A stretch of 64,000 nt of DNA from a plasmid, in sequence record NZ_CP088995.1; one strand, 5' to 3'. The notes under the pieces were generated by a model. It did no database searches and was not told the DNA's origin. It worked only from the letters and a program-made list of their open reading frames with translations. A program made the position numbers and the translations under genes. Positions 34,089 through 63,007 of the stretch are shown piece after piece (positions within the stretch are counted from its first letter, which is position 1; each line of letters starts with the position of its first letter).

Positions 34089-34524
34089 TACAAACTTTCC
34101 GGTTGTTCAAAAAAAGAACAGACGTGGTGGCGTCTGTTCTCCCGCGCTTCTCCGTCGTTTGCCTTCAGGTTATCCACAATTTTAAGCCCCGGATTTGTGG
34201 ACAGGTATGCCGGTAATTCCCCGTTCGCCTGGAGTTAACGCCAGCCTGCCGCCCGCTGCCAGTGTCTCGCGTCCGGTCTGGTACGGGACGGGCGGTTTTT
34301 CCGCTCCGGCCCGGCGTCGTTGAGAGTGTACGCCAGTCCCTCGCCCTTTTAAGGAACGCCCTTCAAGCCGCTTTCGCGGCATATCCTTGCCGTCCAAAAG
34401 ACGGACGGCTGCGGTATTCCACGGTCGGCCTGACCCGTGACCGGACGCGATGAACAGGCAGCGTGCGGCAGGGAACGGTATCGCGGTGATGCCTCCTGCC
34501 CCCTCAGACTACAGGAGTGCTGCC

Positions 34525-36697: not shown

Positions 36698-36719
36698 CAG
36701 CCCGGAGCGTCAGGGGAGG

Positions 36720-37360
36720 GGGACCCTCCCTTGTCAGCCTGCCGGCACAGGAGGTGTGGTGCGATAAGGATGTCGCCGTGCCGGCTCCGCGTCCACCCGG
36801 CCCGGTTTCCGGGCCTTTTGGGTGAACACAACCCTCTGTTATCGCCGTGCCGTGTGCTGGCTGTGCCGTGCCTTCACTTTAGCCCGGCAGCCGCAGAGGC
36901 TGGAGTTCGCTGGCGCCGCCATCCCCGGATAAGGCAGTCGCCGGCTTGCCGTTGCCGCCGGCTCCGCTTCACCCGGCCCCATCCCTCCGGTCCGTGGCCT
37001 TATTACTGCGTCTGTCGCGTTGCGACATCTGCTTCCGCTTTTCTCCCGGTGGTCGAAAAACGGGGGAGAGAAACCCTGTATTCAACCTCCTGCATCGCGA
37101 CGGGTAGTGCCGTGCCTTCACTTTAGCCCGGCCGCTGCAGATGCAAGGGTGCGCTGACGCCGCCATCCTCGCCCGGTCGCAGGTTTTTTATGATGCTCGC
37201 CGTTCTTCCCGTCGTTTTCTCGCTCAGGTTTCGCTCGAAAACCGTCCAGACCAGCTTCGCGCTATATCTGCGCTGCGGCCTCCGGTGTCGCCCCTGCATC
37301 TTCCGCTTTTCGCCGGGCTGTCGTGTCGGCACGGCACAACCCGGTGCCGCAGTCTATGTG
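36720..37360 (+). repeat. GC-rich ~640-bp non-coding region containing the direct repeat TGCCGTGCCTTCACTTTAGCCCGG twice (36857-36882 and 37108-37131). Possible single-strand initiation/promoter element.
   Basis: No credible ORF. The repeat and many local palindromes lie upstream of the klcA paralog. Confidence 0.4.
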
Positions 37361-37377
37361 ATTACGGAGGTTTATCC

Positions 37378-37806
37378 ATGCAGTATGTGAATACATGCCC
37401 GGTCCTGAATGTTGAGGAGTCCGACCGCCTGTCTTTTATGCCGTACCTGTTCGGCACGGATTTCATGCTCGCGGAATTACAGGTGTACGCTCTGGCCAAA
37501 AAATGGATGCCCGAATATGAGGGCGGCTTCTGGCATTTTATTCGCCTGCCGGAGGGGGGCGGCTACATGATGCCGGATTGTGGCCGGGTACATCTGGTCA
37601 GTAGCGAAAACTGGTTTGATCGCACTGTCAGCGCCGACGCGGCGGGCATTATTCTGACCAGCCTGGCGATTAATCGCCGTCTGGCGGCCCATCATGACAG
37701 CAGTAACCCGGCGCTGACTCGCCTTTATATGCTGCGTGATGCCCAGCTCTGGAATCACATCACCTTTCACCCCGAATGCAGTGCTATTTACGCCGCGCTG
37801 GACTGA
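37378..37806 (+). CDS. Second KlcA/ArdB-family antirestriction paralog (142 aa)
   Basis: Shares the layout and the …SADAAGI… motif with klcA at 566-991. RBS GGAGG. Confidence 0.65.
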   Translation: MQYVNTCPVLNVEESDRLSFMPYLFGTDFMLAELQVYALAKKWMPEYEGGFWHFIRLPEGGGYMMPDCGRVHLVSSENWFDRTVSADAAGIILTSLAINRRLAAHHDSSNPALTRLYMLRDAQLWNHITFHPECSAIYAALD

Positions 37807-39386: not shown

Positions 39387-39465
39387 CCTGACCGGTACCC
39401 TTCATCTTGCTGCTGCTCTTCCTCTGGCTTTGCCTCACTTTCCTTTCACACAATCTGCTCCGGGG

Positions 39466-40040
39466 CCACCTTCGGCTCCTGACCCGCTGGCGCGGTTCAG
39501 TCGTCGAGCCACACTCCGCTAACCGCGAAAAGACGCGGTAAGCTCCGCCGAACCCGCTACGCGGTTTCGGGCCTGGCGGCTAGTGTCTGATGTCTGACGT
39601 CAAGGTCAACGGCAGCGCTTGCTGCGACCGTCCCGGTCGCGCCGCTTTCACCGTGCCGGCGAAGGACTGCCGGCACTCTGCGGGGCAACGCCGTTTCGCG
39701 CCCGCGCGTTCCGTCGTTGCGGCGGGTGCCTGCTCCTTTCCCCTGGTACCCGTATCACCCGTTTGAGTCCATTCGCCGGGGCTGAGACAAGCACAACCCG
39801 TCTTGCTGTCCAGGGGACGGCAGGGCCTTTCGCAATAAATTTTTCCCGGCCATTCCGCTGCCGCTTCATTAGGCCGAAAAAAATTTCCCGCTCACCCCCG
39901 GACATCTGCACCGGGCCGTGCTCGTTTACGCCCTTGCGGCGAACGGCTCTCAAACGGGTGAAGGTTATATCCAGGGGGCAGGTTCAGCAGGTCCCCGCAC
40001 AAAGTCAAAACCGCGGCCCCGGCAACTCAACGGGTGATGT
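39466..40040 (+). repeat. Leading-region large repeat, copy 1 (Frpo/ssi-like, ~575 bp), upstream of the 75-aa orf
   Basis: Shares the core …TGTCTGATGTCTGACGTCAAGGTCAACGGCAGCGCTTGCTGCGACCG…CAACTCAACGGGTGATG with copies 2-4. Confidence 0.75.
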
Positions 40041-40065
40041 TCTTTAAAAATCAGGAAAAAGAAAA

Positions 40066-40293
40066 ATGCAGGATCCTTCATTGCGAACGTATCGGATCGC
40101 ATTTCTGGGAAGCAATGCCAGCGGCAATCTGCCGATGTTTACCCGGGTGCAGGCCACGACCGGAAAACGGGCGATAAAAGCGTTTATTGAACGCTGTGAA
40201 CCCGTCAAAGGCTGGTTTCTGGGCGAACCGGAAGACATTACCGATCAGCTTAAGAAGGAGGAAGAAGAAGCGGGAAGCAAACCGCAGATATGA
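40066..40293 (+). CDS. Hypothetical protein (75 aa)
   Basis: ORF 26 bp downstream of repeat copy 1. Confidence 0.4.
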   Translation: MQDPSLRTYRIAFLGSNASGNLPMFTRVQATTGKRAIKAFIERCEPVKGWFLGEPEDITDQLKKEEEEAGSKPQI

Positions 40294-40384
40294 AAAAAGC
40301 AGGGTAAACCCTGCTTCTCCCACGCCGTAAAAATCGCACGAACGGTTTTTCCGGCTTCGTTAACTACCATAAGGAGTCAACTCT

Positions 40385-40615
40385 ATGATCGTTTCTATTT
40401 TTTCACCTTCCGCAGGCGCTGTAAAGCCCCGTCGTCATTCGCGCATTCTGCGCGCAGATATCACCGCACCTGAGATTGATCCCGCTCTCAGAGCTTTCGG
40501 GCGTCATATCGCCAGAAGTCACCGCAAAGGGCGCGGTGTCCACATCCCCGCGATGAAAAATACCGCCCTCGGGCAGGTACTCCGCACGCTGGAACTGAAA
40601 CGCGCATTTAACTGA
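40385..40615 (+). CDS. Hypothetical protein (76 aa)
   Basis: ORF with RBS AAGGAG. Confidence 0.35.
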   Translation: MIVSIFSPSAGAVKPRRHSRILRADITAPEIDPALRAFGRHIARSHRKGRGVHIPAMKNTALGQVLRTLELKRAFN

Positions 40616-40666
40616 TGAGGTGAGCCGCCCCGCGAGGGGCGGCAACTGCAGGAAGGAGAAAACACA

Positions 40667-42022
40667 ATGACACCGACTACCGCACAGATCATGACGGAAA
40701 ATACCGTCAGCCAGACTTACCGGGCAACTTATTCACCCGATGATAATAAATTGCGACTTTACGCATCATTACGGCTCGATGAAGAAACGTATTCCCTGAT
40801 CAACAAAGCAGGCTTTCGCTGGGCGCCCAAACAGGAACTCTTTGTGGCGCCAGCCTGGACGCCGGGGCGGGAGGATGTCCTGCTTTCCCTCGCCGGTGAT
40901 ATCGAGGACGAGGACAGCACCTTGTTTGATCGCCAGGAGCAGCGCGCCGGGCGGTTCAGTGACTACAGTGACCGGCGGGCGGTTGAATCGGAGCAGGCGC
41001 TTGCGCATGTTGATTCGCTGGCATCGGCTGTCCCGCTGGGACAGCCGATCCTGGTAGGCCACCACAGCGAGCGCCGCGCGCGCCGGCATGCGCAGAAAAT
41101 TGAGAACGGCATGAAACGTGCGGTGATGCTGTTCGAGCGCGCCGAATACTGGGAACAGCGCGCGCAGGCCTCTCTGCGGCACGCGAAATACAAGGAGCGT
41201 CCGGATGTGCGTTACCGCCGTATCAAAAAAATCGAGGCGGAATTACGCAAGTCCCAAAAGCACATTGCCCGGTCTGAAAAGTATATGACGATGTGGCGTG
41301 CGCAGACGCTCGATCTGAAAATGGCGTTACTGGTCAGTAATTATGATCATATTCATGCCTGCTTCACGCTCGACAAATACCCCCGCCCGACAGAGAAAAG
41401 CCAGTATGAGGGCTCGATGTCTCTCCATTCTGCCCTGTCTGAGGAGATCATTACTTTTGAACAGGCGCGGGATATTGCGATCCGCTGTCATGAGCGCACG
41501 ATTAGCCACCAACAGCGCTGGGTTAATCATTACCAGAACCGCCTGGCCTACGAACGCGCGATGCTTAATGAAAACGGTGGCGTTGTCACCCGAACAGAGG
41601 AATTTGAACCAGGCGGGCAGGTACTGAGCCGGGGAGAATGGTTAACCATTCTCCGGGTTAACCGGAGTCAGGGGGAGGTGAGTTCAGTCGAAACGCCCTG
41701 TTATCGCTTTCTGGGCTACAGCGGCACGATGAAACTCACGCCCGACCGTATCACGGACTACAAAGCCCCGACAGCGGAGGAAGCCAGCGACGCGAAGAAA
41801 GCGGCGAAGCGCCCACCGATCGTCAACTATCCGGGGGAAGGGTTCCGGGAAATGACAAAGGCCGAGTGGGCGAAATTACCCGCTGATTATAAAGGCGTGC
41901 GGGGTGCTGCAGAAACCGAAACACACGGCGCTTACCGCTTCCGCCGGTGCATGACGCACGGCTGTACGCTCGTGAATGTGTATATCACAGACATGAAAAC
42001 CGTTGAAATTCCGAAAAAATGA
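40667..42022 (+). CDS. Large hypothetical leading-region protein (451 aa; DUF3560-like)
   Basis: Long ORF. No catalytic motif recognised. Confidence 0.5.
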   Translation: MTPTTAQIMTENTVSQTYRATYSPDDNKLRLYASLRLDEETYSLINKAGFRWAPKQELFVAPAWTPGREDVLLSLAGDIEDEDSTLFDRQEQRAGRFSDYSDRRAVESEQALAHVDSLASAVPLGQPILVGHHSERRARRHAQKIENGMKRAVMLFERAEYWEQRAQASLRHAKYKERPDVRYRRIKKIEAELRKSQKHIARSEKYMTMWRAQTLDLKMALLVSNYDHIHACFTLDKYPRPTEKSQYEGSMSLHSALSEEIITFEQARDIAIRCHERTISHQQRWVNHYQNRLAYERAMLNENGGVVTRTEEFEPGGQVLSRGEWLTILRVNRSQGEVSSVETPCYRFLGYSGTMKLTPDRITDYKAPTAEEASDAKKAAKRPPIVNYPGEGFREMTKAEWAKLPADYKGVRGAAETETHGAYRFRRCMTHGCTLVNVYITDMKTVEIPKK

Positions 42023-42069
42023 CAGGAAGGCTCCCCGGCATCTTGCCGGGGAGATCAGGGAGTACATTC

Positions 42070-42633
42070 ATGCATCATGACCTTAAACACCGTATTCAGG
42101 CGATGCGGGACAAACTGGAGGGGCGCGCCCCTGTCGCTGAAATTCAGGGGAGCTCGCAGCTTTTTGTCACCCCCGCCCCGGAATGTCGCCGGCTGGTTGA
42201 GCTGGCTGATGTCCGGGAAACCGATCGCATTCTGGAACCCAGCGCAGGAACGGGCGCCATACTGCAGGCGATCAGGGATACAGTCCCCCGGGCGAAGTGT
42301 GACGCCGTGGAGCTGCACGCCGGATTAGTCAGCCACCTGCAGGCACGTTTCCCGGAGGTCCGGACCTGGTGCGGGGATTTTCTCGAATATCATCCGGATC
42401 GCCGGTATACCCGAATCATCATGAATCCGCCGTTTCATCGCGGTGATGATATCCGGCATATCCGGCGGGCATTAACTCTGCTTGAGCCTGGCGGGATTCT
42501 GACGGGCATATGTCTGGACGGCCCGCGTCAGCAAAAGGCGCTGGAGTCCCTGGCGGACGTCTGGGAGCCGTTGCCGCGGGGAACATTCACGTATACCCAG
42601 GTAGCGACCGCCATCCTCAGAATAACCGTCTGA
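42070..42633 (+). CDS. Orphan SAM-dependent N6-adenine DNA methyltransferase (motif I EPSAGTGA, motif IV NPPF)
   Basis: …LEPSAGTGAILQAI… …IIMNPPFHRGDD…. Confidence 0.7.
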   Translation: MHHDLKHRIQAMRDKLEGRAPVAEIQGSSQLFVTPAPECRRLVELADVRETDRILEPSAGTGAILQAIRDTVPRAKCDAVELHAGLVSHLQARFPEVRTWCGDFLEYHPDRRYTRIIMNPPFHRGDDIRHIRRALTLLEPGGILTGICLDGPRQQKALESLADVWEPLPRGTFTYTQVATAILRITV

Positions 42634-42649
42634 TGACACGTTAAGCCGG

Positions 42650-43440
42650 CGGGGCACCTGTCCCCGTCTGGCCGCGCCTCGAAAGACCGCGCGCCTGCGG
42701 CGCCGGGAAAACCGGGCCGCGCTGACGCGCCGCCCGCATTTCCTTTCCGCGTCTTCCCTGTTTGCTGCCTGCTGTCTGTCTGCTTCCTCTTCTTCTCCCT
42801 GCTGTGATGCCTCTTTTTAACCCTTAAAGGCTTTAAAAGCACACCCACACTGGACACCTTCGGCTCCTGGCCAGCTACGCTGTCCGGTCGTCGAGCCACA
42901 CTCCGCTAACCGCGAAAAGACGCGGTAAGCTCCGCCGAACCCGCTACGCGGTTTCGGGCCTGGCGGCTAGTGTCTGATGTCTGACGTCAAGGTCAACGGC
43001 AGCGCTTGCTGCGACCGTCCCGGTCGCGCCGCTTTCACCGTGCCGGCGATAAAGCTGCCGGCACTCTGCGGGGCAACGCCGTTTCGCGCCCGCGCTCTTC
43101 GTCGTTGCGGCGGGTGCCTGCTCCTTTCCCCTGGTACCCGTATCACCCGTTTGAGTCCATTCGCCGGGGCTGAGACAAGCACAACCCGTCTTGCTGTCCA
43201 GGGGACGGCAGGGCCTTTCGCAATAAATTTTTCCCGGCCATTCCGCTGCCGCTTCATTAGGCCGAAAAAAATTTCCCGCTCACCCCCGGACATCTGCACC
43301 GGGCCGTGCTCGTTTACGCCCTTGCGGCGAACGGCTCTCAAACGGGTGAAGGTTATATCCAGGGGGCAGGTTCAGCAGGTCCCCGCACAAAGTCAAAACC
43401 GCGGCCCCGGCAACTCAACGGGTGATGGTTTTAAAAGGCA
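42650..43440 (+). repeat. Leading-region large repeat, copy 2 (~790 bp, including the 5' extension shared with copy 4), upstream of ssb
   Basis: Near-identical to copy 4 over ~780 bp. Confidence 0.75.
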
Positions 43441-43465
43441 AAACAACGGATTAAGGAGATTCATC

Positions 43466-44008
43466 ATGGCAGCACGTGGCGTTAACAAAGTCATTCTGGT
43501 TGGACATCTGGGACAGGACCCGGAAGTGCGTTACATGCCCAACGGGGGCGCAGTGGTCAATCTGACGCTGGCCACGTCTGAAACATGGCGTGACAAGCAG
43601 ACGGGAGAGATGCGCGAAAACACCGAGTGGCACCGTGTTGTCATGTTCGGCAAGCTCGCGGAAGTGGCGGGTGAATACCTGCGTAAAGGCGCACAGGTCT
43701 ACATCGAGGGCCAGCTGCGCACCCGCAACTGGCAGGACGATGCCGGAGTCACGCGCTACGTCACCGAGGTGCTGGTCGGGCAGAACGGCACCCTGCAGAT
43801 GCTCGGCGGCCGCCGTGAATCCGGAGTGCCTGAGAGCGCCGCGCAGCCGCAAAATCCTGCCACCCCGGCACAACCTGCTCAGGCCGCAGCTAAATCCCCG
43901 AAAGCGAAGGGCGGTAAGAAAGGCCGTCAGGATGCCGCCCCGTCTCAGCAACCGCCTCAGCCACTCCCGGATGATTTCCCACCAATGGATGATGACGCGC
44001 CCTTTTAA
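43466..44008 (+). CDS. ssb: Plasmid single-stranded DNA-binding protein SSB (180 aa)
   Basis: [39 protein letters not shown]… with the C-terminal DDDAPF-like tail …[12 protein letters not shown]. Confidence 0.95.
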
Positions 44009-44056
44009 ACCACGATGAAGACGCCCCGTTCAGGCGGGGCAGAAAAGGAGAAACAC

Positions 44057-44305
44057 ATGGACCATAACGTTTTGTCCCCGCTTGTATCCCTGCCGGATGG
44101 CACGTTTACCCGCGAGCAGGCTCAGGTTGTCGCAGCGCAGTATCAGAATGTGGCGATTGAAGATGACCAGGGGACCCATTTTCGCCTTGTCGTCCGTCAT
44201 CAGGATGACGGCAGCATGATCTGGCGCGTCTGGAATTTTGAACCGGGCGGCGAGGACATGATGAACCGCTACATCCGGGACTACGGAGTACGCAAAACGA
44301 AGTAA
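44057..44305 (+). CDS. Hypothetical protein (82 aa) downstream of ssb
   Basis: ORF with RBS AAAGGAG. Confidence 0.4.
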
Positions 44306-44374
44306 GCAGTAAGAAGAAGGCCGGACAGGTGGGCTGTCCGGCAGACATTCATCAATAGCTAAGAGGTATCAATT

Positions 44375-46432
44375 ATGTCTGCAACAGAGTCTAAGGTAAA
44401 AACTGCACCGAAAACCAGCAAAAAAACGCTTAAGTCTGCCGAAGCTGAGGCGCTTAAAGTGGCTCTCGATGCCGCACAGGTCGAGTATGTCCCGGTGACG
44501 GCACTGGTGAAGTCTCCCCTGAACGTCAGGACCATTCCCTATCCGGCGGAGAAAGTCTGTTCAATGGCAGATTCCATTGAAGCCATTGGCCTGTTGCAGA
44601 ATCTGGTCGTGCATAACCTCCCGGATGGTCGCTGTGGTGTGGCTGCCGGTGGTCGTCGCCTGAAAGCGCTGCAGCTCCTGCAGAGTGAAAACCGTATCGA
44701 TGCCGGATATCAGGTGATGGTGAAAAAGGTACCTGATGAACTGGCTGTTGCGGCATCAATGGCAGAAAACGAACAGCAGATGGCAATGCATCCGTCTGAA
44801 CAGATCGCCGGGTTCCGCACACTGGCAGAGCAGGGGAAAACCGCCGCGCAGATTGGCGATTTGCTTGGGTTCGGTACGCGTCATGTTCAGCGCATGTTGA
44901 AGCTGACCGAACTGGCTCCCGAAATTCTGGCGGCGCTGGCGAAGGATGAAATCACCACCGAACACTGCCAGGCACTGGCGCTCGAAAGCGATCAGAAACG
45001 CCAGGTGGAAGTGCTGGAATCCGCCCGCAAACGGTCCTGGAATAATGAAGCATCAGTTTCCTCGATCCGTAACCTCATTATCTCAGAAGAGGTTTCCACA
45101 AACGGCGACAAATTCCGCTTTGTGGGAGAGGCCGCATTCAGTCCGGATGAAATCCGGGTTGATCTCTTCAGCAGCGAAAACGGCGGCTATGTCAAAAGTG
45201 CATCGCTCGATACCGCCCTGCTGGAAAAACTGCAGAACATCGCGGAGCACCTCCGCGAAGCGGAAGGCTGGTCATGGTGTGATGGTCGTCTTGACCCGAT
45301 TTCACACTACGGGAAGGACACTAAAATCTGGCGCCTGCATGCTGTCCCGCCTGTGGAATATACCGAAGCCGAATCAGAACGTCTTGCAGAGCTGGAAGCT
45401 CTGGAAGCTAAGTATGAAGACGAGAACCCCGGCGTGAATGATGACGTCGTGGCCGGGGCTCTGGAAGCCGTCTGGGAAGAACAGCAGACCATCGCGCACC
45501 GGGCAAAACACCGGGCATGGACGGATGAAATGAAGCAATCTGCCGGAGTGGTGGTTTCCTGGACTGGCCAGGAGGTGAAAGTACAGCGCGGTGTGGTGCT
45601 GTGCGCCGATGAAAAAATGGAGGAGAAGGATGCATCCACCGATCAGGCCCCTGAAAAAGTCGATCCGCTGGACGCCGTCAGTGTCCCGTTGCTGACCCGC
45701 CTTTCTTCTGAACGCACACTGGCGGTTCAGGCGGCCCTGTTGCAGCAGCCGCAGAAAGCCGTCGCGCTGATGGTCTGGAAAATGTGTAACTCGGTTTTCC
45801 ATACCACAACGTCCGTCAAAGAGCCGTTCTGCATTAGCGTGAGTGTGTCGCATTACGCGCTGACCCGTGAAGCACCTGACGGTGAAAACAGCGTTGCGTT
45901 TCAGGCCATCCAGTCAGAAAAAGAACGTCTTGAAGCCCTGCTGCCGGAAAACTGGCGAAAGGATATGACCACCTTCTTTACGCTCGATGGCGCAACCCTG
46001 ATGGCACTGATGGCTTTCTGCACCGCCTGCTCCATAGATGGTGTACAGGGCAAGGATGAATCTGGTCGTAAACACCAGAGTTCGCTGGATGGGGTGGAAA
46101 ACGCCATTCAGTTTGACCTTCGTGACTGGTGGAAACCGACGGCTGATAACCTTTTCTCGCACATGAAGCTGCCACACATTGTACAGGCACTCTCTCAGGC
46201 CGGACTGGCTGGCGCAGCACAGGACGCCGCGAAGATGAAGAAAAAGGATGCCGCTGAACATGCAGAGCACTTCCTCTCAAAAATCCGTTGGGTTCCGGAA
46301 TGGATGACCAGTGCTGACAATCAGAAACAGCCTGCCGCAAAGTCTGAACTCAGTCTGGCAACAAGTCAGAACGATACCGACGCTGATGCCGGCGACGTCA
46401 CCGACCATAACAACCCGGCCTGCGCCGCCTGA
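44375..46432 (+). CDS. ParB-like nuclease-domain protein of the leading region (685 aa)
   Basis: N-terminal ParB/Srx motif (…LVHNLPDGRCGVAAGGRRLKAL…). Confidence 0.7.
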   Translation: MSATESKVKTAPKTSKKTLKSAEAEALKVALDAAQVEYVPVTALVKSPLNVRTIPYPAEKVCSMADSIEAIGLLQNLVVHNLPDGRCGVAAGGRRLKALQLLQSENRIDAGYQVMVKKVPDELAVAASMAENEQQMAMHPSEQIAGFRTLAEQGKTAAQIGDLLGFGTRHVQRMLKLTELAPEILAALAKDEITTEHCQALALESDQKRQVEVLESARKRSWNNEASVSSIRNLIISEEVSTNGDKFRFVGEAAFSPDEIRVDLFSSENGGYVKSASLDTALLEKLQNIAEHLREAEGWSWCDGRLDPISHYGKDTKIWRLHAVPPVEYTEAESERLAELEALEAKYEDENPGVNDDVVAGALEAVWEEQQTIAHRAKHRAWTDEMKQSAGVVVSWTGQEVKVQRGVVLCADEKMEEKDASTDQAPEKVDPLDAVSVPLLTRLSSERTLAVQAALLQQPQKAVALMVWKMCNSVFHTTTSVKEPFCISVSVSHYALTREAPDGENSVAFQAIQSEKERLEALLPENWRKDMTTFFTLDGATLMALMAFCTACSIDGVQGKDESGRKHQSSLDGVENAIQFDLRDWWKPTADNLFSHMKLPHIVQALSQAGLAGAAQDAAKMKKKDAAEHAEHFLSKIRWVPEWMTSADNQKQPAAKSELSLATSQNDTDADAGDVTDHNNPACAA

Positions 46433-46476
46433 TAACGGAGACGCCGCCCTGCGGGGCGGCGATAAGGAGACTGAAA

Positions 46477-46908
46477 ATGAAAACGTTACTGACTCTGGAT
46501 GTCCTGAAAACCATGTCTTCTGATGAGCTGGAAGACTACCGCGCCGCCGGTGAAGACTTTCGCCGGGAGCTGAGTCACGCTGTCATGCGCGATCTGACCT
46601 CACCGTCCGGCTGGTCCGTGAATGCCGAATACCGGTGCGAATTTGGCGGCTTCTTTCCTGTCCAGATCCGTTTTACCCCCTCTCATGGTCACTTTGATGT
46701 GGCGGTATGCAGTCCGGGGGAGTTGAATCCTCGCTGGATAGTGGTCTTTGTTACCCGTGACGGTCAGCCGTTCTCTGTCGTTCGCGTGATGGATGCATTC
46801 AACCCTGAACTCATCACCCATACTCTGGATCTCATCGAGTGTCTTGACGCCGGTGGCTACTCGTTTGCCAGCATCATCAGCACGCTGTCACAGGAGGGCG
46901 CACAATGA
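46477..46908 (+). CDS. psiB: Plasmid SOS inhibition protein PsiB
   Basis: MKTLLTLDVLKTMSSDELEDYRAAGEDFRRELSHAVMRDL… is the PsiB family. Confidence 0.9.
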   Translation: MKTLLTLDVLKTMSSDELEDYRAAGEDFRRELSHAVMRDLTSPSGWSVNAEYRCEFGGFFPVQIRFTPSHGHFDVAVCSPGELNPRWIVVFVTRDGQPFSVVRVMDAFNPELITHTLDLIECLDAGGYSFASIISTLSQEGAQ

Positions 46909-47633
46909 TCCCGTCATCCAGTGCTCTTGTATCCCTGAAACCAGCCCGTCAGGCAGCGCTGCAGGCCATCATGACGGTGGAAGAGGCTCGCCAGCGCGGC
47001 GCACGTCTGCCATCGATGCCACACGTCCGGACATTCCTGCGCCTGCTGACAGGCTGTAGCCGGATTAACAGTGACGTTGCCCGCCGTATTCCGGGCCTTC
47101 ACCGTGATCCAAAAGACCGCCTTTCCAGCCTGAAACAGGTGGAAGAGGCGCTGGATATGCTTATCTCCAGCCACGGGGAATACTGTCCGCTGCCGCTGAC
47201 AATGGATGTGCAGGCTGAACTTTTTCCGGAAGTCCTTCATACCCGAACAGTACGCAGGCTAAAACGTCAGGACTTTGCCTTCACCCGAAAAATGCGCCGT
47301 GAAGCCCGTCAGGTCGAGCAGTCCTGGTTACTGCGTCAGAACCTGCTGGGACAGGCTGTCACAGAACTGAATTTTCAGTCACCGGAAACCGTCTGCACCT
47401 GGTACACCCGGTGGAGCGACGAGTTTGACGCGGCAGAGCTTGCAGCACCGTTCTGGCGCTGGCAGTCGCGATTCACATCGCTGAAGGAACTGGACTGGCT
47501 TCGCATCAGCGGTGAGCCGCTGTATGCAGTGATGTACGAAATTCCGTTAATTGTCCGGGAAACACCTGAGCATATTCGTGTTGCTGAACGCTGGCAGGTG
47601 CCAAATAAGCTGGCTGATCGGAGTGGTGTATGA
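46905..47633 (+). CDS. psiA: Plasmid SOS inhibition protein PsiA
   Basis: Overlaps the psiB stop. PsiA-like length and motifs (…TPETV…WYTRWS…). Confidence 0.75.
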   Translation: MIPSSSALVSLKPARQAALQAIMTVEEARQRGARLPSMPHVRTFLRLLTGCSRINSDVARRIPGLHRDPKDRLSSLKQVEEALDMLISSHGEYCPLPLTMDVQAELFPEVLHTRTVRRLKRQDFAFTRKMRREARQVEQSWLLRQNLLGQAVTELNFQSPETVCTWYTRWSDEFDAAELAAPFWRWQSRFTSLKELDWLRISGEPLYAVMYEIPLIVRETPEHIRVAERWQVPNKLADRSGV

Positions 47634-47956
47634 AGTGGCGCTATTCTCTGCGCTGGAAACTGCCGCACAGGCCCTGCCCGGGTCCACGGGAACTGATTTC
47701 CGTTGTCGTGGAGGCTGGGCAGGCGGCACCTGAAGAGGTGATGTCACGCTGGGTGGCTGGCTCAGGTTACGCTGTATGCGTGGATTTTCACGGCCAGAAA
47801 CAGATCCAACGCTGGAGCGATGAACGGAAAGCTGCGGTGAGAAGGCGCAACATGCAGGCTCGTATTCATCGTGTTGCCCCTTTGTTTGCCGACGAGTTAA
47901 TCGAGCGTGAACTGGCTGCGCGTCCGGAGTATTTCAATGGCAAGTCCGCCCGATGA
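47630..47956 (+). CDS. Hypothetical protein (108 aa)
   Basis: ORF overlapping the psiA stop. Confidence 0.35.
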   Translation: MKWRYSLRWKLPHRPCPGPRELISVVVEAGQAAPEEVMSRWVAGSGYAVCVDFHGQKQIQRWSDERKAAVRRRNMQARIHRVAPLFADELIERELAARPEYFNGKSAR

Positions 47957-47984
47957 ATAAGTACAATGCTGTCTGACAACTCAG

Positions 47985-48386
47985 ATGGCCAAATACAAGG
48001 AAAGCAGAACTATGAGGTACTGGTTGCTCGTTATCTTAATGAACGTGCTGTTCTGGTTGATCGTGAAGCATGTTGCTCCGGAATGGTATGGTTCCCCTTG
48101 TTATTATGCAGGCCAGATTATCTGCACACTAATAGCTGCGGTCATCACATGGCGTGATCCGCCTGACTGGTTAGATGGAATCCTGCTCGGCGTTATAGAA
48201 TTCGGCGTTCTGATTGCCGGGATTATATTCTTTGTCTGGGGCATCGGGTACAAGCTGGCATTCTGGGGGCAACATGATCCTAATACCATATATGCAAGTG
48301 CAAACGATGTGATTTTGCCTAATCTTGCGCTGGGCACGGGCGTCTTGATTGCGGGATGGGTATACATTAGATATTTAAAGCGCTAA
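47985..48386 (+). CDS. Hypothetical membrane protein (133 aa, 4 TM)
   Basis: Hydrophobic ORF. Confidence 0.4.
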   Translation: MAKYKESRTMRYWLLVILMNVLFWLIVKHVAPEWYGSPCYYAGQIICTLIAAVITWRDPPDWLDGILLGVIEFGVLIAGIIFFVWGIGYKLAFWGQHDPNTIYASANDVILPNLALGTGVLIAGWVYIRYLKR

Positions 48387-48613
48387 GCAGCATAAAGCGT
48401 GGATATACCTGGTAAGAAATAGCACCGTCCCGGTATAATCGACGTGGCGCTTGAGGCTTTTTGCCTCATGACGTGAAGGTGGTTTGTTACCGTGTTGTGT
48501 GGCAAAAAGCAGAAAGCCCCGTAGTTAATTTTCATTAACCCACGAGGCCACCTGTATGCCTAGACAACATCAGGATAGCCTCTTAGATGCCGCAAGGCAA
48601 GGAGAAGAAGGCC

Positions 48614-48772
48614 ATGAAACTGCCGCGAAACACTCTGCTCGGGTGCGTATTAATAGTGTGCCTCACACTGCTGATATTCACTTACCTCACCCGGAAATCA
48701 CTTTGTGAAATCCGGTACAGGGACACGAACAGGGAGGTGGCGGCTTTTCTGGCTTACGAATCCGCTAAGTAG
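48614..48772 (+). CDS. hok: Hok-family type I toxin (52 aa). Its antisense RNA and mok-like leader are expected just upstream, ~48450-48613.
   Basis: [52 protein letters not shown]. Confidence 0.85.
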
Positions 48773-49464
48773 CTAACCCCGGCGGGGGGAAGCCCCCGCC
48801 ATTCAGGGGAGATGATGTCTGACAAGCCTGAAGCGCCTTTATGAAGGGGTTACCGTTCACCGGTAGCCCCTTTTTCCTGCTTACAGGAAAAAAAGCCCGC
48901 ACGACAGGCGGGCAAAAATCTTTCATCTACCTACAACACAGATTCAATGAATCGCAAGTCACATTAACATCCTTCATTCACCGTAACACCCTGTCATCAG
49001 TCTGAAAAAAAAGTGATTGATTGTGAACATTTGGGTTCTGGTGATAAGTTCTCTCTGTAGCGTAGCCCTCTTTACGGAGGGGTGGAAACAGCAACGGCAG
49101 AGTTAAAAGACCACGAGTCAGTGAGGCTGTCCAAAGGCTCCCCGGGGAAACCCGGCGCTACATCAGGTTGCATAGCACTTAACCCGCCCGCCTGCCGGGT
49201 TTTCCTTCCGGAAAAGTGCTGCTATAACTTATTCGTGCAATGCGCGGTATCCGCTTTCCTGGTAAATCAGTCGCCCGGTCTGCCAGGTGATACTGCAGTT
49301 CATTCCTTATATGATACAGTGATGTTCGCCTGCTTTTTAAGCAGGCTTTTTTTGTTGATTATGTATGACATCTGTCATACAGTTGATTGCGTAATGAACA
49401 GAAATTGTTCCACTTAACTCAGTGAGGCGAAGCGCAGTCGCGGGTGAGCCAAAGGAGAGCCAGC

Positions 49465-49737
49465 ATGAACTTCACGATAAAATCCCGTAAAACCGGCGAA
49501 ATTTTCAGTTTTTACGCACCCGACAGTGGTGGTTATGTTCACCTGGAGTCCCCGGGGCACCCTGGTAACACCGGCGCCCAGATTTGCCGTGGTGGAGGGT
49601 TTATGGGGAGTACGCTTTCCTGTGGCGCTTCTGAGGACGATCTGGCCAGTGTTGCCCGTAAATGGTACCGACAGTTCGTGAGGGAGCGGCGCAAATTCTT
49701 AATTATGTCGGGCCAGTATTCTGAGGATAACCAGTGA
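49465..49737 (+). CDS. Hypothetical protein (90 aa)
   Basis: ORF. Confidence 0.35.
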   Translation: MNFTIKSRKTGEIFSFYAPDSGGYVHLESPGHPGNTGAQICRGGGFMGSTLSCGASEDDLASVARKWYRQFVRERRKFLIMSGQYSEDNQ

Positions 49738-50084
49738 AAAAAGAGATCTCCCGCAACCCCTCTTTCACACCTTCGCCTAAGCTGCGAGCACATCTGAACT
49801 CCCACAGGGAAGGGGTGACTGAACGGCTGAATAATATCTTTGATCGCTATGCGCATCTGGTTCGCGCCTGTGCCCTTCCTCTCGATGACGACGAAACACA
49901 GGTTCTGCTTAATGTTCTGAATGGCTCCGTTGTGGAACCCGCCTTTATTGAATATCTGGCTCAGGAAATTCGGGACTCGGATGATTATCTGGAAGGGATA
50001 CCCGCAGCTAAATCACTGTACGAAAAGTGTCAGTCAGCGACCTATCCGCAATTGCTGGCCACCGTCGAACGGCTCGATCGCTGA
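49734..50084 (+). CDS. Hypothetical protein (116 aa)
   Basis: ORF overlapping the upstream stop. Confidence 0.35.
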   Translation: MKKEISRNPSFTPSPKLRAHLNSHREGVTERLNNIFDRYAHLVRACALPLDDDETQVLLNVLNGSVVEPAFIEYLAQEIRDSDDYLEGIPAAKSLYEKCQSATYPQLLATVERLDR

Positions 50085-50098
50085 AGAAGGTAAATCCG

Positions 50099-50416
50099 AT
50101 GAGTGACGTACTTTCCTGCAGACAACTTACGGCTAATCTTAAGATGATTGCCGGGGCGATTGGCTGCCTCAACAGGAACGATGTTGCACAAATTATCAGC
50201 CTGGGCGGTGTTCCATGTTCAAAAAGCCGGGCCGACTCGATAATCCGCAGTGCCGGGGCGGAAAAAAATGCATCCGGTAATTCTCATCTTCGCGGAGCCA
50301 GAATAAAACGATCCGCAGATGTCACACCGGAAGAATTCAATGCGTTTTGTGCAGGGCTGAAAACATTTCTTGTCTCGTTTGAAACGAATAATGTGAGTGA
50401 AAACAATGATAAGTAA
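50099..50416 (+). CDS. Hypothetical protein (~105 aa)
   Basis: ORF. Confidence 0.3.
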   Translation: MSDVLSCRQLTANLKMIAGAIGCLNRNDVAQIISLGGVPCSKSRADSIIRSAGAEKNASGNSHLRGARIKRSADVTPEEFNAFCAGLKTFLVSFETNNVSENNDK

Positions 50417-50589
50417 GCTCCTGACCTGTCTGTGCTCCGGACAAATGCAGTTTCAGGAATTAATAAATCCCTATATATGGCAGCGTTAATTTTGTGACGC
50501 GGATTATTACATCCAGCCCGCTTATTGAGCTGTAGATATTGATTTATGTTGATTGTTCTCGATTCGTCCATTGGATCAGCCCGTTATTT

Positions 50590-51240
50590 CTCTGCGGGCT
50601 TTTGTTCTTATATTCCTCCGTTCCTTCCTGTGATGGCTTTATTTCCTGCTGTGTCCCTTTTTAAAACTGAAAAGGATTAAAAGCACACCCACACTGGACA
50701 CCTTCGGCTCCTGGCCAGCTGCGCTGTCCAGTCGTCGAGCCACACTCCGCCAGGGCAGCTGCTTCGCACCCGCCGGGCTCCGCCGAACCCGCAAGCGGTT
50801 TCGGGCCTGACGGCTAGTGTCTGATGTCTGAGGTCAGGGTCAACGGCAGCGCTTGCTGCGACCGTTCCGGCCGCGCCGCTTTCACCGTGCCGGCGATAAA
50901 GCTGCCGGCACTCTGCAGGGCAACGCCGTTTCGCGCCCGCGCTCTTCGTCGTTGCGGCGGATGCCTGCTCCTTTCCCCTGGCGCCGTATCACCCGTTTGA
51001 GTCCATTCGCCGGGGCTGAGACAAGCACAGTCGCCATCATCCGTCCAGGGTAAATGGCACGCGGTAAACCGCGCCCTGGACAGCTGCTGTCGCCCGTGCT
51101 CGTTTACGCCCTCGCGGCGAACGGCTCTCAAACGGGTGAAGGTTTTATCCAGGGGGCAGGTTCAGCAGGTCCCCGCACAAAGTCAAAACCGCGGCCCCGG
51201 CAACTCAACGGGTGATGGTTTTAAAAGGCAGAAAAACAGA
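50590..51240 (+). repeat. Leading-region large repeat, copy 3, with a divergent ~130-bp central segment
   Basis: Shares the 5' and 3' blocks with copies 1, 2 and 4. The middle segment is replaced. Confidence 0.7.
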
Positions 51241-51256
51241 CAAAGGAGAAAGCTGG

Positions 51257-51613
51257 ATGAGCACACAAAACGTCAACGTAAAACCCTCCACCAAAGAAAG
51301 CACAACCCTCCGGACTGACGGTTTTGTGCGCAACATTCATTCCCGAAACCCGTTCGATGTTATCCGCGCCGATGTAGTGCTGGAACGTATCGAGAAAGAG
51401 GCTGGTTGGTGCTGCGGGATGCATTACGAGCTGTATCAGGCCCATCTGCTGGGTGGTGCGCTGGATTATCTGGATGCGCTGCCGTTGAAAGACCGTCCGG
51501 TGTTAATGGGCGCTGCGGCAAAGCGCGGCTATCTGCTGACGCTAGCCGAAGAGGAACGCGCGCTGGAAGCACGGGATGTACTGATGAGTGAACTGGCGGC
51601 AAACGACTGCTGA
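51257..51613 (+). CDS. Hypothetical protein (118 aa)
   Basis: RBS AAGGAG. 17 bp downstream of repeat copy 3. Confidence 0.45.
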   Translation: MSTQNVNVKPSTKESTTLRTDGFVRNIHSRNPFDVIRADVVLERIEKEAGWCCGMHYELYQAHLLGGALDYLDALPLKDRPVLMGAAAKRGYLLTLAEEERALEARDVLMSELAANDC

Positions 51614-51673
51614 GAAATAAACACGGATGGCGGCGTATCGCTGCCATCCCTTAAAGACCAGAGGTAACGCAAA

Positions 51674-51886
51674 ATGAAAGTATACGGCCATCAACACTCA
51701 TCAGAGGTTTTCTCCCGGGAAACTTCCCCATCCTGTTTTGAACCAAAAGCGGAAAAGTTGATCGCTTTTCATGGAAAGGATGCCAGTTACGCCTATAACG
51801 TGCTGGCCGATCTGAAAGCCGCAGGTGCTTCATATACGCGCCGGAATATCATCGCCGATATGTTCCGCCGTCTGGGTGTGGAATGA
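51674..51886 (+). CDS. Hypothetical protein (70 aa)
   Basis: ORF. Confidence 0.3.
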   Translation: MKVYGHQHSSEVFSRETSPSCFEPKAEKLIAFHGKDASYAYNVLADLKAAGASYTRRNIIADMFRRLGVE

Positions 51887-51896
51887 GGTCTGGGCA

Positions 51897-52121
51897 ATGG
51901 AACACGTGAAAAGACAAATCCAGCAGGGGGCAGGGAACGCCTATTATGCGGGGATGCAGTGGCGCGGTATTACACTCGGACACGCCGATGCTGCAGCGCT
52001 TAATCAGTTTGATATCGATATCAGCAAAGCTCAGGCACCCGAAGCACGCACCTGGTTGCTTCAGAACAAAGCGGAATTCATAGCTCTTATGCTGGGTATT
52101 GAGATTGTAAAGATCGGGTAG
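51897..52121 (+). CDS. Hypothetical protein (74 aa)
   Basis: ORF. Confidence 0.3.
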   Translation: MEHVKRQIQQGAGNAYYAGMQWRGITLGHADAAALNQFDIDISKAQAPEARTWLLQNKAEFIALMLGIEIVKIG

Positions 52122-52185
52122 TGAGAAGTTAGCTAACTTAGCTCTTGAGCTAAGTTAGCTTTTAAGCTAACGTATACACATACGG
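52113..52185. promoter_or_regulatory. Palindromic operator array (TTAGCTAACTTAGCT…AGCTAAGTTAGCT…AGCTAACG) upstream of the RelE/HigB-like toxin gene
   Basis: Multiple inverted copies of AGCTAA/TTAGCT lie directly before the TA operon. Confidence 0.5.
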
Positions 52186-52201
52186 ACCAGAGATTACATT
52201 C

Positions 52202-52522
52202 ATGTTCACAGTCATCTTTCATGATGAGGCTGAAAAAGAGTTTACGGCTCTGCCTGCTGCCATTCGTGCAAAAATGGCCAGGCTACTCATGAAGCTGGAA
52301 GCAAACCCTCGCCAGCTACGCGAGCCAGATACCAAGCCGCTTGGAAACGGCCTTTTCGAAATACGTACAATGGGGGCAGATATCGCCCGCGGAATCTGGG
52401 TATATCAGAGTGGTGAACGTATTTTTCTACTTCGGATCTTTATCAAAAAATCGCCAAAAACGCCCCCGGCAGAAATAGATCTGGCACTTCGCAGACTGGA
52501 GGAAATGCAGAATGAAATATAA
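52202..52522 (+). CDS. RelE/ParE-superfamily toxin (HigB/Gp49-like, 106 aa)
   Basis: Toxin-first gene order with a downstream XRE antitoxin. …IWVYQSGERIFLLRIFIKK…. Confidence 0.65.
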   Translation: MFTVIFHDEAEKEFTALPAAIRAKMARLLMKLEANPRQLREPDTKPLGNGLFEIRTMGADIARGIWVYQSGERIFLLRIFIKKSPKTPPAEIDLALRRLEEMQNEI

Positions 52523-52790
52523 AACCCTTAGCCAGGTTCATACCGAAGCAATGAACGATCATGAGTACAGCGCGGCATTCGAGGCAGAAGAAGCCTCGGA
52601 GCTACTTCGGGAAACCTTAGCAACATGGAGAAAAGAAGCGGGTTTGACGTCGGCACAGGTTGCAGAACGTATGGGCATCAAAGCGCCTACTATCTCACGT
52701 ATGGAGAAGAACGCTTCGCGAATGAGTATTCAGACGCTGGTTCGGTACGCCAGAGCCTGCGGTGTTAACTTTAAAATTCAGCAGGTTTGA
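52512..52790 (+). CDS. HTH XRE-family antitoxin (HigA-like, 92 aa)
   Basis: …LTSAQVAERMGIKAPTISRMEKN… HTH. Overlaps the toxin gene by 11 nt. Confidence 0.65.
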   Translation: MKYKTLSQVHTEAMNDHEYSAAFEAEEASELLRETLATWRKEAGLTSAQVAERMGIKAPTISRMEKNASRMSIQTLVRYARACGVNFKIQQV

Positions 52791-52917
52791 ATGTCACTCG
52801 TCAGCCGGATCCTCAGTGGTGAACGCAGTCTGACCCTCGATCACATGCGGGCGCTGGCAAATCGATTTCAAATCCCGGTCTCGATGTTTGTTGACTGATT
52901 CGGGAACAGAGCAGGCG

Positions 52918-53700
52918 AAGGGGGCATCTGTCCCCGTCTGGCCGCGCCTCGAAAGGCCGCGCGCCTGCGGCGCCGGGAAAACCGGGCCGCGCTGACGCGC
53001 CGCCCGCATTTCCTTTCCGCGTCTTCCCTGTTTGCTGCCTGCTGTCTGTCTGCTTCCTCTTCTTCTCCCTGCTGTGATGCCTCTTTTTAACCCTTAAAGG
53101 CTTTAAAAGCACACCCATACTGGACACCTTCGGCTCCTGGCCAGCTACGCTGTCCAGTCGTCGAGCCACACTCCGCTAACCGCGAAAAGACGCGGTAAGC
53201 TCCGCCGAACCCGCAAGCGGTTTCGGGCCTGACGGCTAGTGTCTGATGTCTGAAGTCAAGGTCAACGGCAGCGCTTGCTGCGACCGTCCCGGTCGCGCCG
53301 CTTTCACCGTGCCGGCGAAGGACTGCCGGCACTCTGCAGGGCAACGCCGTTTCGCGCCCGCGCTCTTCGTCGTTGCGGCGGGTGCCTGCTCCTTTCCCCT
53401 GGTACCCGTATCACCCGTTTGAGTCCATTCGCCGGGGCTGAGACAAGCACAACCCGTCTTGCTGTCCAGGGGACGGCAGAGCCTTTCGCAATAAATTTTT
53501 CCCGGCCATTCCGCTGCGCTTCATTAGACCGAAAAAAATTTCCCGCTCACCCCCGGACATCTGCACCGGGCCGTGCTCGTTTACGCCCTCGCGGCGAACG
53601 GCTCTCAAACGGGTGAAGGTTATATCCAGGGGGCAGGTTCAGCAGGTCCCCGCACAAAGTCAAAACCGCGGCCCCGGCAACTCAACGGGTGATGGTTAAA
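52918..53700 (+). repeat. Leading-region large repeat, copy 4 (~780 bp)
   Basis: Near-identical to copy 2. Confidence 0.75.
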
Positions 53701-53726
53701 AAATTAAACAGGTGAAGGAGAATAAT

Positions 53727-54548
53727 ATGCGTTTAGCATCCCGATTTGGACTTACTCATTCCATTCGTCAGGAACGCCCACTGACTAACGATGAATTAGT
53801 CAAGGTTGTACCTTCTGTGTTTTCAGAAGAAAAGCATAATTCACGTAGTGATCGCTATACCTATATTCCAACCATTACACTGCTGGATAAATTACGTGAA
53901 GAAGGTTTCCAGCCATTTTTTGCCTGTCAGTCACGAGTAAGGGATGAGGATAAACGGGGGCATACTAAGCATATGGTAAGACTTCGCCGTGAAGGGGCCA
54001 ATAAAGGAACAGAAGTACCCGAAATCATTCTTCTTAACTCGCATGATGGATCGTCCAGTTATCAAATGATCCCGGGTATGTTCCGTTTTGTATGCACAAA
54101 TGGCCTTGTGTGCGGTACGTCGTTTGGTGAGATTCGTGTACCTCATAAAGGTGATATTGTTGGAAGGGTTATCGAAGGTGCTTACGAAGTTCTGGGAATT
54201 TTCGATAAAATAACTGAAGGCGTTGATGTCATGAAGTCTATTGCCTTAACCAAGGAAGAACAGCGTCTGTTTGGACAAGCTGCATTAACCTACCGATATG
54301 AAGATGAAAATAAATCTCCGGTCAGTATTGAACAGATAATTCATCCGCGCCGTTATGAAGATAAAAAAGATGACATCTGGACTACATATCAAAGGGTCCA
54401 GGAAAATCTGATTAAAGGCGGTTTGCCTGGCCGAACTGAAAAAGGGAAAAGAACAACAACCCGGCCAGTAAAAGCAATCGATGGTGATGTTAAACTCAAT
54501 AAGGCATTGTGGTTAATTGCGGAGAAATTCCGCACTCTTAAAGGCTAA
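53727..54548 (+). CDS. DUF932-like leading-region protein (273 aa)
   Basis: ORF with RBS AAGGAG immediately after repeat copy 4. Confidence 0.5.
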   Translation: MRLASRFGLTHSIRQERPLTNDELVKVVPSVFSEEKHNSRSDRYTYIPTITLLDKLREEGFQPFFACQSRVRDEDKRGHTKHMVRLRREGANKGTEVPEIILLNSHDGSSSYQMIPGMFRFVCTNGLVCGTSFGEIRVPHKGDIVGRVIEGAYEVLGIFDKITEGVDVMKSIALTKEEQRLFGQAALTYRYEDENKSPVSIEQIIHPRRYEDKKDDIWTTYQRVQENLIKGGLPGRTEKGKRTTTRPVKAIDGDVKLNKALWLIAEKFRTLKG

Positions 54549-55439: not shown

Positions 55440-55830
55440 CGTGCCAAATCCCGGAATAACCTTAACCCATCCAAGACCGAGACTCAACATATATGCACTC
55501 CTCACCACAAAATCACCACACACTACGCAAAATTAAAATTTTGCAGATTTCACTTTAGCTTCAGTGGCTTAACTGTAGTTATATTACATTATGTTATTTT
55601 TCTTTATATATATGTGAGTTGCCGGTGAGTCAGTAGTAAGTCGTCGGTAAGTCTATAGCGACTCGTTTATGACTCACTCTTTTATAATCATATATTTAAA
55701 GCGACTTAACTCTAGACTTAAGTCGCCATATGACTCGTAATGCAACTTTCTTAGACTCTAGACTTAAGTTTAGAGTTGTAAAGAAGGTAAACTCGCGTTA
55801 TCTTCTCGCCATAATAACTTGTTTGATGCT
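55440..55830 (+). promoter_or_regulatory. oriT: F-like oriT region between gene X and traM. AT-rich with direct and inverted repeats (e.g. GACTTAAGTCGCCATATGACTCG / TAGACTTAAGTTTAGAG) that are candidate TraM/IHF/TraY sites.
   Basis: Position is conserved in F-like plasmids. The nic site was not pinpointed. Confidence 0.55.
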
Positions 55831-56339: not shown

Positions 56340-56415
56340 TTACAGGGTTGTACTAAAATTTGTTGAAGCGTTGACGTCCGGGGCTTGTCCCCCCGAACGT
56401 CAACTATCCATAGTG
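56340..56415 (-). ncRNA. finP: Candidate FinP antisense RNA region (traJ leader; strong hairpin GTTGACGTCCGGGG…CCCCGAACGTCAAC at 56369-56403)
   Basis: Perfect 13-bp stem immediately upstream of the traJ RBS. Position matches F-like FinP stem-loop II. Confidence 0.4.
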
Positions 56416-56434
56416 TCCTTTCCAGGAGGCGCCT

Positions 56435-62703: not shown

Positions 62704-63007
62704 TATGTGGCAGAACTCCGGACACTGACGCCTTCGCGTTGCTCAGTTGTCCAACCCCGGAAACGGGAAAAAGCAAGTTTTCCCCGCTCCCGGCGTTTCT
62801 GCAATAAAAAGCAGGGGCATGGAGGTCGTCGTAACCAGACAGGAATGTGGTATTATCGCGGCGGGTGTCTGAGCCTTTCTGGTTCAGGCAAGACGCAGGT
62901 ACCAGAAATGCGAAGACCCCACTCGTTAATCCATTAACTCGTGAGGTCTGCATGAAGTACTTAGCACTACTGATTGTAGCCTCTTCTTTGCAGAGAGGTC
63001 AAAGTTT

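Follow-up and report, generated by a model that had tools for sequence, protein, structure and literature searches.

Transcription of leading-region genes of conjugative plasmids from promoters formed in single-stranded DNA (ssDNA) is a principle established for F and ColIb/pESBL. F has two copies of such an element, Frpo, located upstream of ssb and of ygeA, and their deletion abolishes early expression (PMC9849209). ColIb/pESBL have three copies of the class 1 element, and the start sites of class 1 transcripts in pESBL were mapped by rapid amplification of 5' cDNA ends (PMC12672017). A Serratia island contains one Frpo upstream of ssb and three elements called Frpo', and an anti-CRISPR gene driven by Frpo was active on the leading transferred strand only (PMC11541004). 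Class 2 (klcA/ardA, ssp2) and class 3 (M.EcoGIX) ssDNA promoters follow the same principle in the same region; ssp2 additionally acts as a roadblock to replication (bioRxiv 10.64898/2026.01.09.698686), an activity not known from class 1 elements. Here, we describe four long repeats in a 64,000-nucleotide stretch of a plasmid (record NZ_CP088995.1; the window), which an earlier inspection of the sequence, referred to below as the original prediction, had compared to Frpo/ssi promoters.

We conclude, with a probability of about 0.9, that the four repeats are class 1 ssDNA promoters (Frpo, ssiD, ssi1-3, ssp1) in an F-like leading region of the IncFII(K) type. The basis for that in the window is the location of the repeats, their strand, homology, a strand-specific hairpin, covariation and the missing linear promoter. 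The ssDNA-dependent transcription, the priming and the switch-off are taken from the literature on F and ColIb/pESBL, and we infer the hexamer and the direction used, as well as any role of the tail that accompanies the hairpin. The Frpo/ssi reading of the original prediction is thus upheld by the position beside oriT, the homology to F ssiD, the transferred-strand hairpin with its covariation, and the lack of a conventional promoter. Its wording, which also mentioned primosome sites, was loose in that respect, as Frpo/ssiD, in the work of Masai and Arai from 1997 (summary in PMC7690428), was reportedly an RNA-polymerase-dependent priming signal and not a PriA primosome site.

Four direct copies of the repeat in the leading region

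A repeat search, a four-way alignment, and a blastn comparison of the longest copy with the entire window revealed exactly four direct copies, all in one orientation, and no partial ones:

39464-40049, 586 bp, minus strand: repeat copy 1, tail modules and a Frpo-type hairpin, upstream of an open reading frame (ORF) of 75 amino acids; bounds by blastn
42651-43459, 809 bp, minus strand: repeat copy 2, upstream of ssb; found by repeat search, alignment and blastn
50645-51249, 605 bp, minus strand: repeat copy 3, upstream of an ORF of 118 amino acids; carries a short apex cassette
52921-53703, 783 bp, minus strand: repeat copy 4, upstream of a DUF932 gene

The coordinates predicted originally were right within a few bases, except for the left end of copy 3. 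This end was about 55 nt too generous, the homology starting at about 50645 and not at 50590. The four copies were aligned, as had been suggested as a check. One block of 46 nt is identical in all four copies (0 expected by chance), and the motifs quoted previously, GGCTAGTGTCTGATGTCTGA..., CAACTCAACGGGTGATG and GTGCCGGCGAAGGACTGCCGGCAC, are present in the repeats. Copies 2 and 4 have in common an extra 5' extension of about 200 nt with 99% identity (42651-42850 and 52921-53120), and in copy 3 about 85 nt of the hairpin apex are swapped for a cassette of about 30 nt. The left ends of the copies are nested and differ from each other, while the right ends coincide at ...GGGTGATG in all four. With the start codons located, each right end lies about 17-38 nt upstream of the start codon of a plus-strand gene (the 75-amino-acid ORF, ssb, the 118-amino-acid ORF and the DUF932 gene, as predicted), and a purine-rich ribosome-binding sequence lies in between.

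Multiple near-identical copies with a long inverted repeat superficially resemble a miniature inverted-repeat transposable element (MITE), as if a non-autonomous mobile element of this kind, or a remnant of an insertion sequence (IS), had landed four times in the leading region. The ends of the copies do not fit this explanation, the left ones being nested and different, and the right ones lying at the same distance from a start codon. Moreover, the flanks of the four copies lack target-site duplications and shared terminal repeats, the marks of an IS or MITE named in the original prediction. Within the window, the copies are confined to the leading region, with one orientation relative to oriT, and homologues of other genera hold the same position upstream of ssb. 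A mobile element is therefore an extremely improbable explanation.

The repeats also appear to be non-coding, since one-base insertions or deletions separate the copies and their homologues. In the RefSeq annotation of a plasmid that is 100% identical, all four repeats are intergenic. The ORFs inside the repeats, considered spurious in the original prediction, appear so also by these two observations. Read upstream, the ssb frame continues without interruption across all of copy 2 and forms an ORF of 343 amino acids (42977-44008), and in other plasmids tiny genes for a 'single-stranded DNA-binding protein' have been called inside the hairpin (positions 502-663 and 496-609 of two homologue loci). 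Both the extension of the ssb frame and the tiny calls seem to be artefacts of annotation that result from the GC-rich repeat.

A 15-kb stretch of the window is 100% identical to sequences of more than 600 F-type plasmids of Klebsiella and E. coli. The window represents the leading region of an IncFII(K)-type plasmid that is very common in Klebsiella. According to the annotation of the identical plasmid, the leading-region genes comprise umuDC, parM, a methylase gene, antirestriction genes, ssb, a parB-like gene, psiB, psiA, hok/sok and DUF932, and the order downstream of DUF932 is the SLT gene (minus strand), oriT, traM, the traJ position, traY and traA. The nick region was located as follows:

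55500-55535, minus strand: oriT nick region (TTTTGCGTAGTGTGTGGTGATTTTGTGGTGAG), between the SLT gene (minus strand) and traM (plus strand)

The counterpart of the F nick region, TTTTGCGTAGTGTGT/GGTGATTTTGTGGTGAG, lies on the minus strand near 55515; in F, too, it is the minus strand of the locus that carries the nick core, GGTGTGGTG. Since the nick motif is on the minus strand, the minus strand is the transferred one, and it is the template for the plus-strand leading genes. The distance from the nick to the four copies and their genes is 2-16 kb, and the genes are on the plus strand.

Comparison with described elements

As queries for blastn against the window we used the known and candidate Frpo/ssi sequences of Samuel et al. 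(Nature 2024, PMC11541004; Supplementary Table 2), the set that has already served to annotate Frpo across PLSDB (PMC12826799). Frpo' 1-3 of S. marcescens CP047692.1 matched copies 1, 2, and 4 with 97-99% identity along some 400 nt. Copy 1 matched the published Frpo' 3 with 99.2% identity over 397 nt, gene junction included, copy 2 matched Frpo' 1/3 with 99% identity, and copy 4 matched the published Frpo' 1 with 99.0% identity over 397 nt, ribosome-binding region included. The S. marcescens locus has the same four-copy layout, and its junctions with the genes after copies 1 and 4 match those of the window; it differs in that the element at the position of copy 3 has a long apex, not a short one. 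Frpo' 1-3 of CP047692.1 are candidates named by their authors from sequence and structure, not tested promoters. Copy 3 was 82% identical over 322 nt to the insect metagenome Frpo' 5, whose short apex is the same, and an element of the short-apex type is also located upstream of ssb in a Citrobacter plasmid.

F ssiD/Frpo aligned with all four copies at 67-68% identity over 360-373 nt (E = 1e-19 to 2e-20; 68% and E = 8e-20 for the core of copy 1), and F ssiE had no match anywhere in the window. The two F elements, Frpo1 (ssiD) and Frpo2, also known as ssp1a and ssp1b, resemble the window copies in place, being located upstream of ssb and of the ygeA/DUF932 block beside oriT in a syntenic leading region, in orientation, and in the long hairpin of the transferred strand, with about 68% identity over their whole 345-370 nt. 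The hexamer TTGAGA, the sequence CCCTGGAC, an internal bubble and the tail hairpin GCGACCGGAACGGTCGC are common to F and the window copies. In contrast to the four copies of the window, F has two, and the two extra window copies head operons that are absent from F or driven differently there. The apex cassette is also unlike that of F: copies 1, 2, and 4 have a long cassette that includes an extra mini-hairpin, and copy 3 has a short one.

The ssi1-3 elements of ColIb-P9/pESBL (class 1 of IncI1) belong to the same family by published usage. They share with the window copies the core GTCCGGGGG...CCCCTGGAC near the apex, the bubble, and a tail of short GC hairpins, and they too occur as several dispersed direct copies, each at the head of a leading-region operon. 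However, only about 43 nt can be aligned (79%, blastn), and the basal half-stem and TTGAGA are not shared. For ssi1-3, the sites at which transcription starts have been determined by experiment. Class 2 and class 3 promoters have no sequence similarity to the four repeats.

The mechanism and near-identical sequences are already in the literature, the latter being described as Frpo-like in the 2024 paper. In PLSDB, this exact variant was counted at 11,593 places distributed over 3,846 records (1-8 per record, commonly four and about three each), and the occurrences are almost never annotated. The copy number and size of the repeat, which the original prediction had singled out, are therefore not exceptional: about three copies per plasmid are usual across these records, and F too has a repeated tail upstream of the hairpin. 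The same holds for the central cassette of copy 3, which represents the known apex variant of the insect and Citrobacter elements.

A strand-specific hairpin supported by covariation

When folded as ssDNA, the transferred strand of each core formed one long imperfect hairpin of 300-360 nt, with a folding energy of -94 to -102 kcal/mol, as had been predicted for all four copies:

39682-40040, minus strand: main hairpin of copy 1 (class 1 ssDNA promoter core), -102 kcal/mol, z = -8.4; plus strand -86.3
43070-43428, minus strand: main hairpin of copy 2, -101.7 kcal/mol; plus strand -85.0
50918-51218, minus strand: main hairpin of copy 3, -94 kcal/mol, z = -7.9; plus strand -71.7
53339-53695, minus strand: main hairpin of copy 4, -96.7 kcal/mol; plus strand -77.0

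The complementary strand reached -72 to -86 kcal/mol, 15-22 kcal/mol weaker (z = -4.5 for copy 1). The transferred strand is more stable than its complement because of an asymmetry of wobble pairs: its hairpins contain 5-14 G.T pairs (13 in copy 1) and no A.C single mismatches. This asymmetry indicates that the structure was selected on the minus strand and not on the mRNA.

For covariation, we added eight further homologues of 71-93% identity from Enterobacter, Edwardsiella, two Klebsiella species, Citrobacter, E. coli, Shigella, and Salmonella, giving an alignment of 15 homologues from eight genera, the F and insect elements included. In the consensus hairpin, 97.5% of cells were paired, as compared to at most 45% when the partners were slid. 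Compensatory changes were found at 11 pairs, a number reached by none of 500 shuffles, and several G.T pairs were invariant across the 15 homologues.

These data also bear on the possibility that the conserved structure works as RNA, namely as a 5' leader or riboregulator of plus-strand mRNAs made from an ordinary upstream promoter. The plus strand does fold better than shuffled sequence (the z of -4.5 given above), and part of the element is in the 5' untranslated region under either of the promoter models considered below. However, all of the 5-14 G.T pairs of the minus strand become C.A mismatches in the mRNA, and none the other way round, the plus strand has the weaker fold, and no ordinary upstream promoter was found. 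No Rfam family matched, even at E = 1 (no match to the repeats reached the gathering score over the window, and none appeared at E <= 1 over copy 2). An action at the RNA level thus seems highly unlikely.

The variable sites of the four-copy alignment (39464-53703) group the copies incompatibly: six sites unite copies 1 and 2 against copies 3 and 4, four unite copies 1 and 4 against copies 2 and 3, and six set copy 1 apart from the other three. Such patterns indicate gene conversion or recombination between copies, as if the repeats were chiefly substrates of homologous recombination, marking boundaries for the gain, loss or swap of gene cassettes, with promoter activity being secondary. Two further observations are in line with that: related plasmids vary in copy number (from 1 to 8), and one IncI plasmid lacks a 9.7-kb segment of the leading region that has Frpo repeats at its boundaries (PMC3817090). 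Nevertheless, recombination explains neither the strand-specific hairpin, nor the covariation, nor the fixed distance to start codons. It is also compatible with promoter function, as a by-product of having repeats, and we regard it as a very improbable main role.

The 5' arm of the hairpin contains a direct repeat, CATCACCCGTTGAG beside the ribosome-binding site (40026-40038 in copy 1) and CTTCACCCGTTTGAG further in (39949-39962), with equivalents in the other copies. Since the 3' arm holds a single complement (CTCAAACGGGTGA, 39755-39767), two pairing registers are possible.

Candidate promoter elements within the hairpin

Neither a canonical linear sigma-70 promoter nor an intrinsic terminator was found on either strand of the repeats (gaps of about 600 bp; the promoter scan gave 0 sites). 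The lack of a linear promoter fits the downstream genes being silent on double-stranded DNA. Within the hairpin, a bubble and two -35-like hexamers stand out:

GTAA 39926-39929 (5' arm) opposite CTCA 39783-39786, minus strand: conserved internal bubble of copy 1, unpaired in all four minimum-energy folds
43314-43317/43171-43174; 51104-51107/51017-51020; 53581-53584/53439-53442, minus strand: equivalents of the bubble
39948-39953, minus strand: TTGAGA, -35-like hexamer (5/6 to TTGACA), duplex, 5' arm, 18 nt before the bubble
43336-43341, 51126-51131, 53603-53608, minus strand: equivalents of TTGAGA
39807-39812, minus strand: TGGACA, -35-like hexamer (5/6 to TTGACA), duplex, 3' arm, 20-21 nt before the bubble
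43195-43200, 51042-51047, 53463-53468, minus strand: equivalents of TGGACA

The bubble varies from 4x4 to 5x5 and is unpaired between helices 6 and 7 in the 15-sequence consensus, so that it would be the expected site of a pre-melted -10. Either hexamer may act as a promoter element. TTGAGA is invariant in all 15 F/Klebsiella-type sequences, and the best sigma-70 match in F ssiD is TTGAGA-17-CATACT. The sequence CCCTGGAC is conserved in every class 1 homologue, including ColIb ssi1-3, and in the truncated F Frpo2 fragment that drove the anti-CRISPR gene in the study of Samuel et al., TGGACA is paired and TTGAGA unpaired. As the bubble is flanked by two opposed -35-like boxes, RNA polymerase might load in either direction. 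Loading at TTGAGA, with transcription round the apex, would start the mRNA at about 39795 (copy 1), 43183 (copy 2), 51029 (copy 3), and 53451 (copy 4). Loading at TGGACA, with transcription straight to the gene, would place the starts at about 39940, 43328, 51118, and 53595, respectively.

Three other candidates were rejected. TATAAC in an internal loop (about 39962-39967 in copy 1, minus strand) resembles a -10 but is 33 nt from TTGACT and is not conserved, close relatives having TTGTTA. The best-scoring pair in the window copies, TTGACT-17-GAACCT at the base of the stem, is unlikely to function, as the position of its -10 varies freely among homologues and the stem base does not pair in the F fragment that works. 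An UP element with TTGCGA-17-TGGACA on the 3' arm has a spacer of 15-17 nt and is missing from the short-apex variants (copy 3, Citrobacter, insect). TGGACA is better read as a -35.

Tail modules upstream of the hairpin

The repeat unit exceeds the usual 328-351 nt of Frpo because the hairpin is followed, on the transferred strand, by a tail (upstream in gene orientation), which consists of modules:

39593-39699; about 42980-43087, 50839-50934, 53257-53355, minus strand: tail module U1, with short GC hairpins (among them GCGACCGGGACGGTCGC); identity of 80-88% with the 3' tails of the published Frpo* 5/7
39464-39592, minus strand: tail module U2, 85% identical to the 3' tail of Frpo* 4; copies 2-4 extend further upstream

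The first 110 nt or so of the tail are kept in 14 of 14 homologues, both F copies included. Within them lies the hairpin GCGACCGGRACGGTCGC, with AGCAAGC after it, and Enterobacter and K. michiganensis show compensatory changes there. Further modules resemble the 3' tails of Frpo* 4, 5 and 7, which are published hairpins of other types. Taken as one hairpin, the tail modules are weakly structured overall (z = -2 to -3), and this interpretation was dropped. Rfam gave no match to the tail. With one part conserved from F to Klebsiella and further modules that also follow unrelated hairpin types, the tail could be a separate functional module, either a timing or priming signal for the complementary strand or an insulator between early operons. 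This idea is speculative, and we consider it rather unlikely.

Genes downstream of the repeats and other features of the window

The first genes after the four copies are the following:

40066-40293, plus strand: first gene after copy 1, 75 amino acids, no Pfam family; followed by a 76-amino-acid ORF, a DUF3560 protein and a methyltransferase
43466-44008, plus strand: ssb, first gene after copy 2, PF00436, E = 1e-38; followed by DUF905, a ParB-like gene, psiB and psiA
51257-51613, plus strand: first gene after copy 3, 118 amino acids, no Pfam family
53727-54548, plus strand: DUF932 gene, first after copy 4, PF06067, E = 3e-51

Copy 2 thus heads the series ssb, parB-like, psiB, psiA. Just after copy 1, between the 75- and 76-amino-acid ORFs, is an Rfam match to AS-pc01 (RF02875, 'antisense to pHK01_035'; 94.8 bits, 40294-40390, minus strand), antisense to the early operon.

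Two gaps elsewhere in the window also resemble ssDNA promoters. The 680-bp gap at 36700-37378, upstream of a klcA-like antirestriction gene (37378-37806, PF03230), has matches to the published Frpo' 4 / Frpo* 1 and 3 (ssp2/class 2) at 36765-36888 and 37269-37370, and two long hairpins form when its transferred strand is folded (-164 kcal/mol, z = -5.5). This gap is probably a class 2 ssDNA promoter, possibly in a tandem arrangement. In the gap at 34089-34524, upstream of a DNA methylase gene, the transferred strand forms one long hairpin (-111.9 kcal/mol, z = -6.65), making it a candidate class 3 (M.EcoGIX-type) promoter. Further Rfam matches, all ordinary features of F-type plasmids, are listed below:

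30084-30309: group II intron (with ltrA), between umuDC and parM
48445-48616 and 62863-63020: two hok/sok loci
56364-56441: FinP
63827-63916: CopA

Proposed mechanism and its significance

During conjugation, transfer of the minus strand into the recipient would begin with its 5' end at the nick near 55515. On entry, the core of each repeat (300-360 nt) would snap back into the long imperfect hairpin, rebuilding the duplex -35-like hexamers beside a permanently open bubble that could substitute for a melted -10. Host RNA polymerase with sigma-70 would then bind the hairpin and copy the transferred strand into plus-sense mRNA of the adjoining operon. The operons driven in this way would be those of the 75-amino-acid ORF to DUF3560 and the methyltransferase (copy 1), of ssb to the parB-like gene, psiB and psiA (copy 2), of the 118-amino-acid ORF to a relE-type pair (copy 3), and of DUF932 and DUF5983 (copy 4). 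The same transcripts may prime synthesis of the complementary strand. Once the strand is copied, the hairpin could no longer form and no ordinary promoter would be left, so that expression would be early and transient.

Several points weigh against this interpretation. Neither strand of the bubble is a good -10 (GTAAAC and TCTCAG), and even when the scoring is relaxed, the sigma-70 matches of the window copies are weak. The two candidate orientations are also at odds with each other. TTGAGA is invariant only among F/Klebsiella-type elements and is unpaired in the fragment reported to work, and the distance from TGGAC to the bubble ranges from 16 to 23 nt across homologues. The promoter model leaves a tail of 200-450 nt per copy unexplained. 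Finally, ssDNA-dependent expression is carried over from F and ColIb/pESBL to these copies and this plasmid family.

The practical value of these results is modest. They provide exact coordinates for four class 1 elements left blank by genome annotation, a confirmation of the DNA hairpin by strand asymmetry and covariation, and two start-site predictions for each copy. The backbone on which the elements are located carries KPC and other resistance genes in Klebsiella, and elements of this kind determine gene expression in the first minutes after a resistance plasmid has entered a new cell, switching on ssb and the functions of SOS inhibition, anti-restriction, and DNA methylation.

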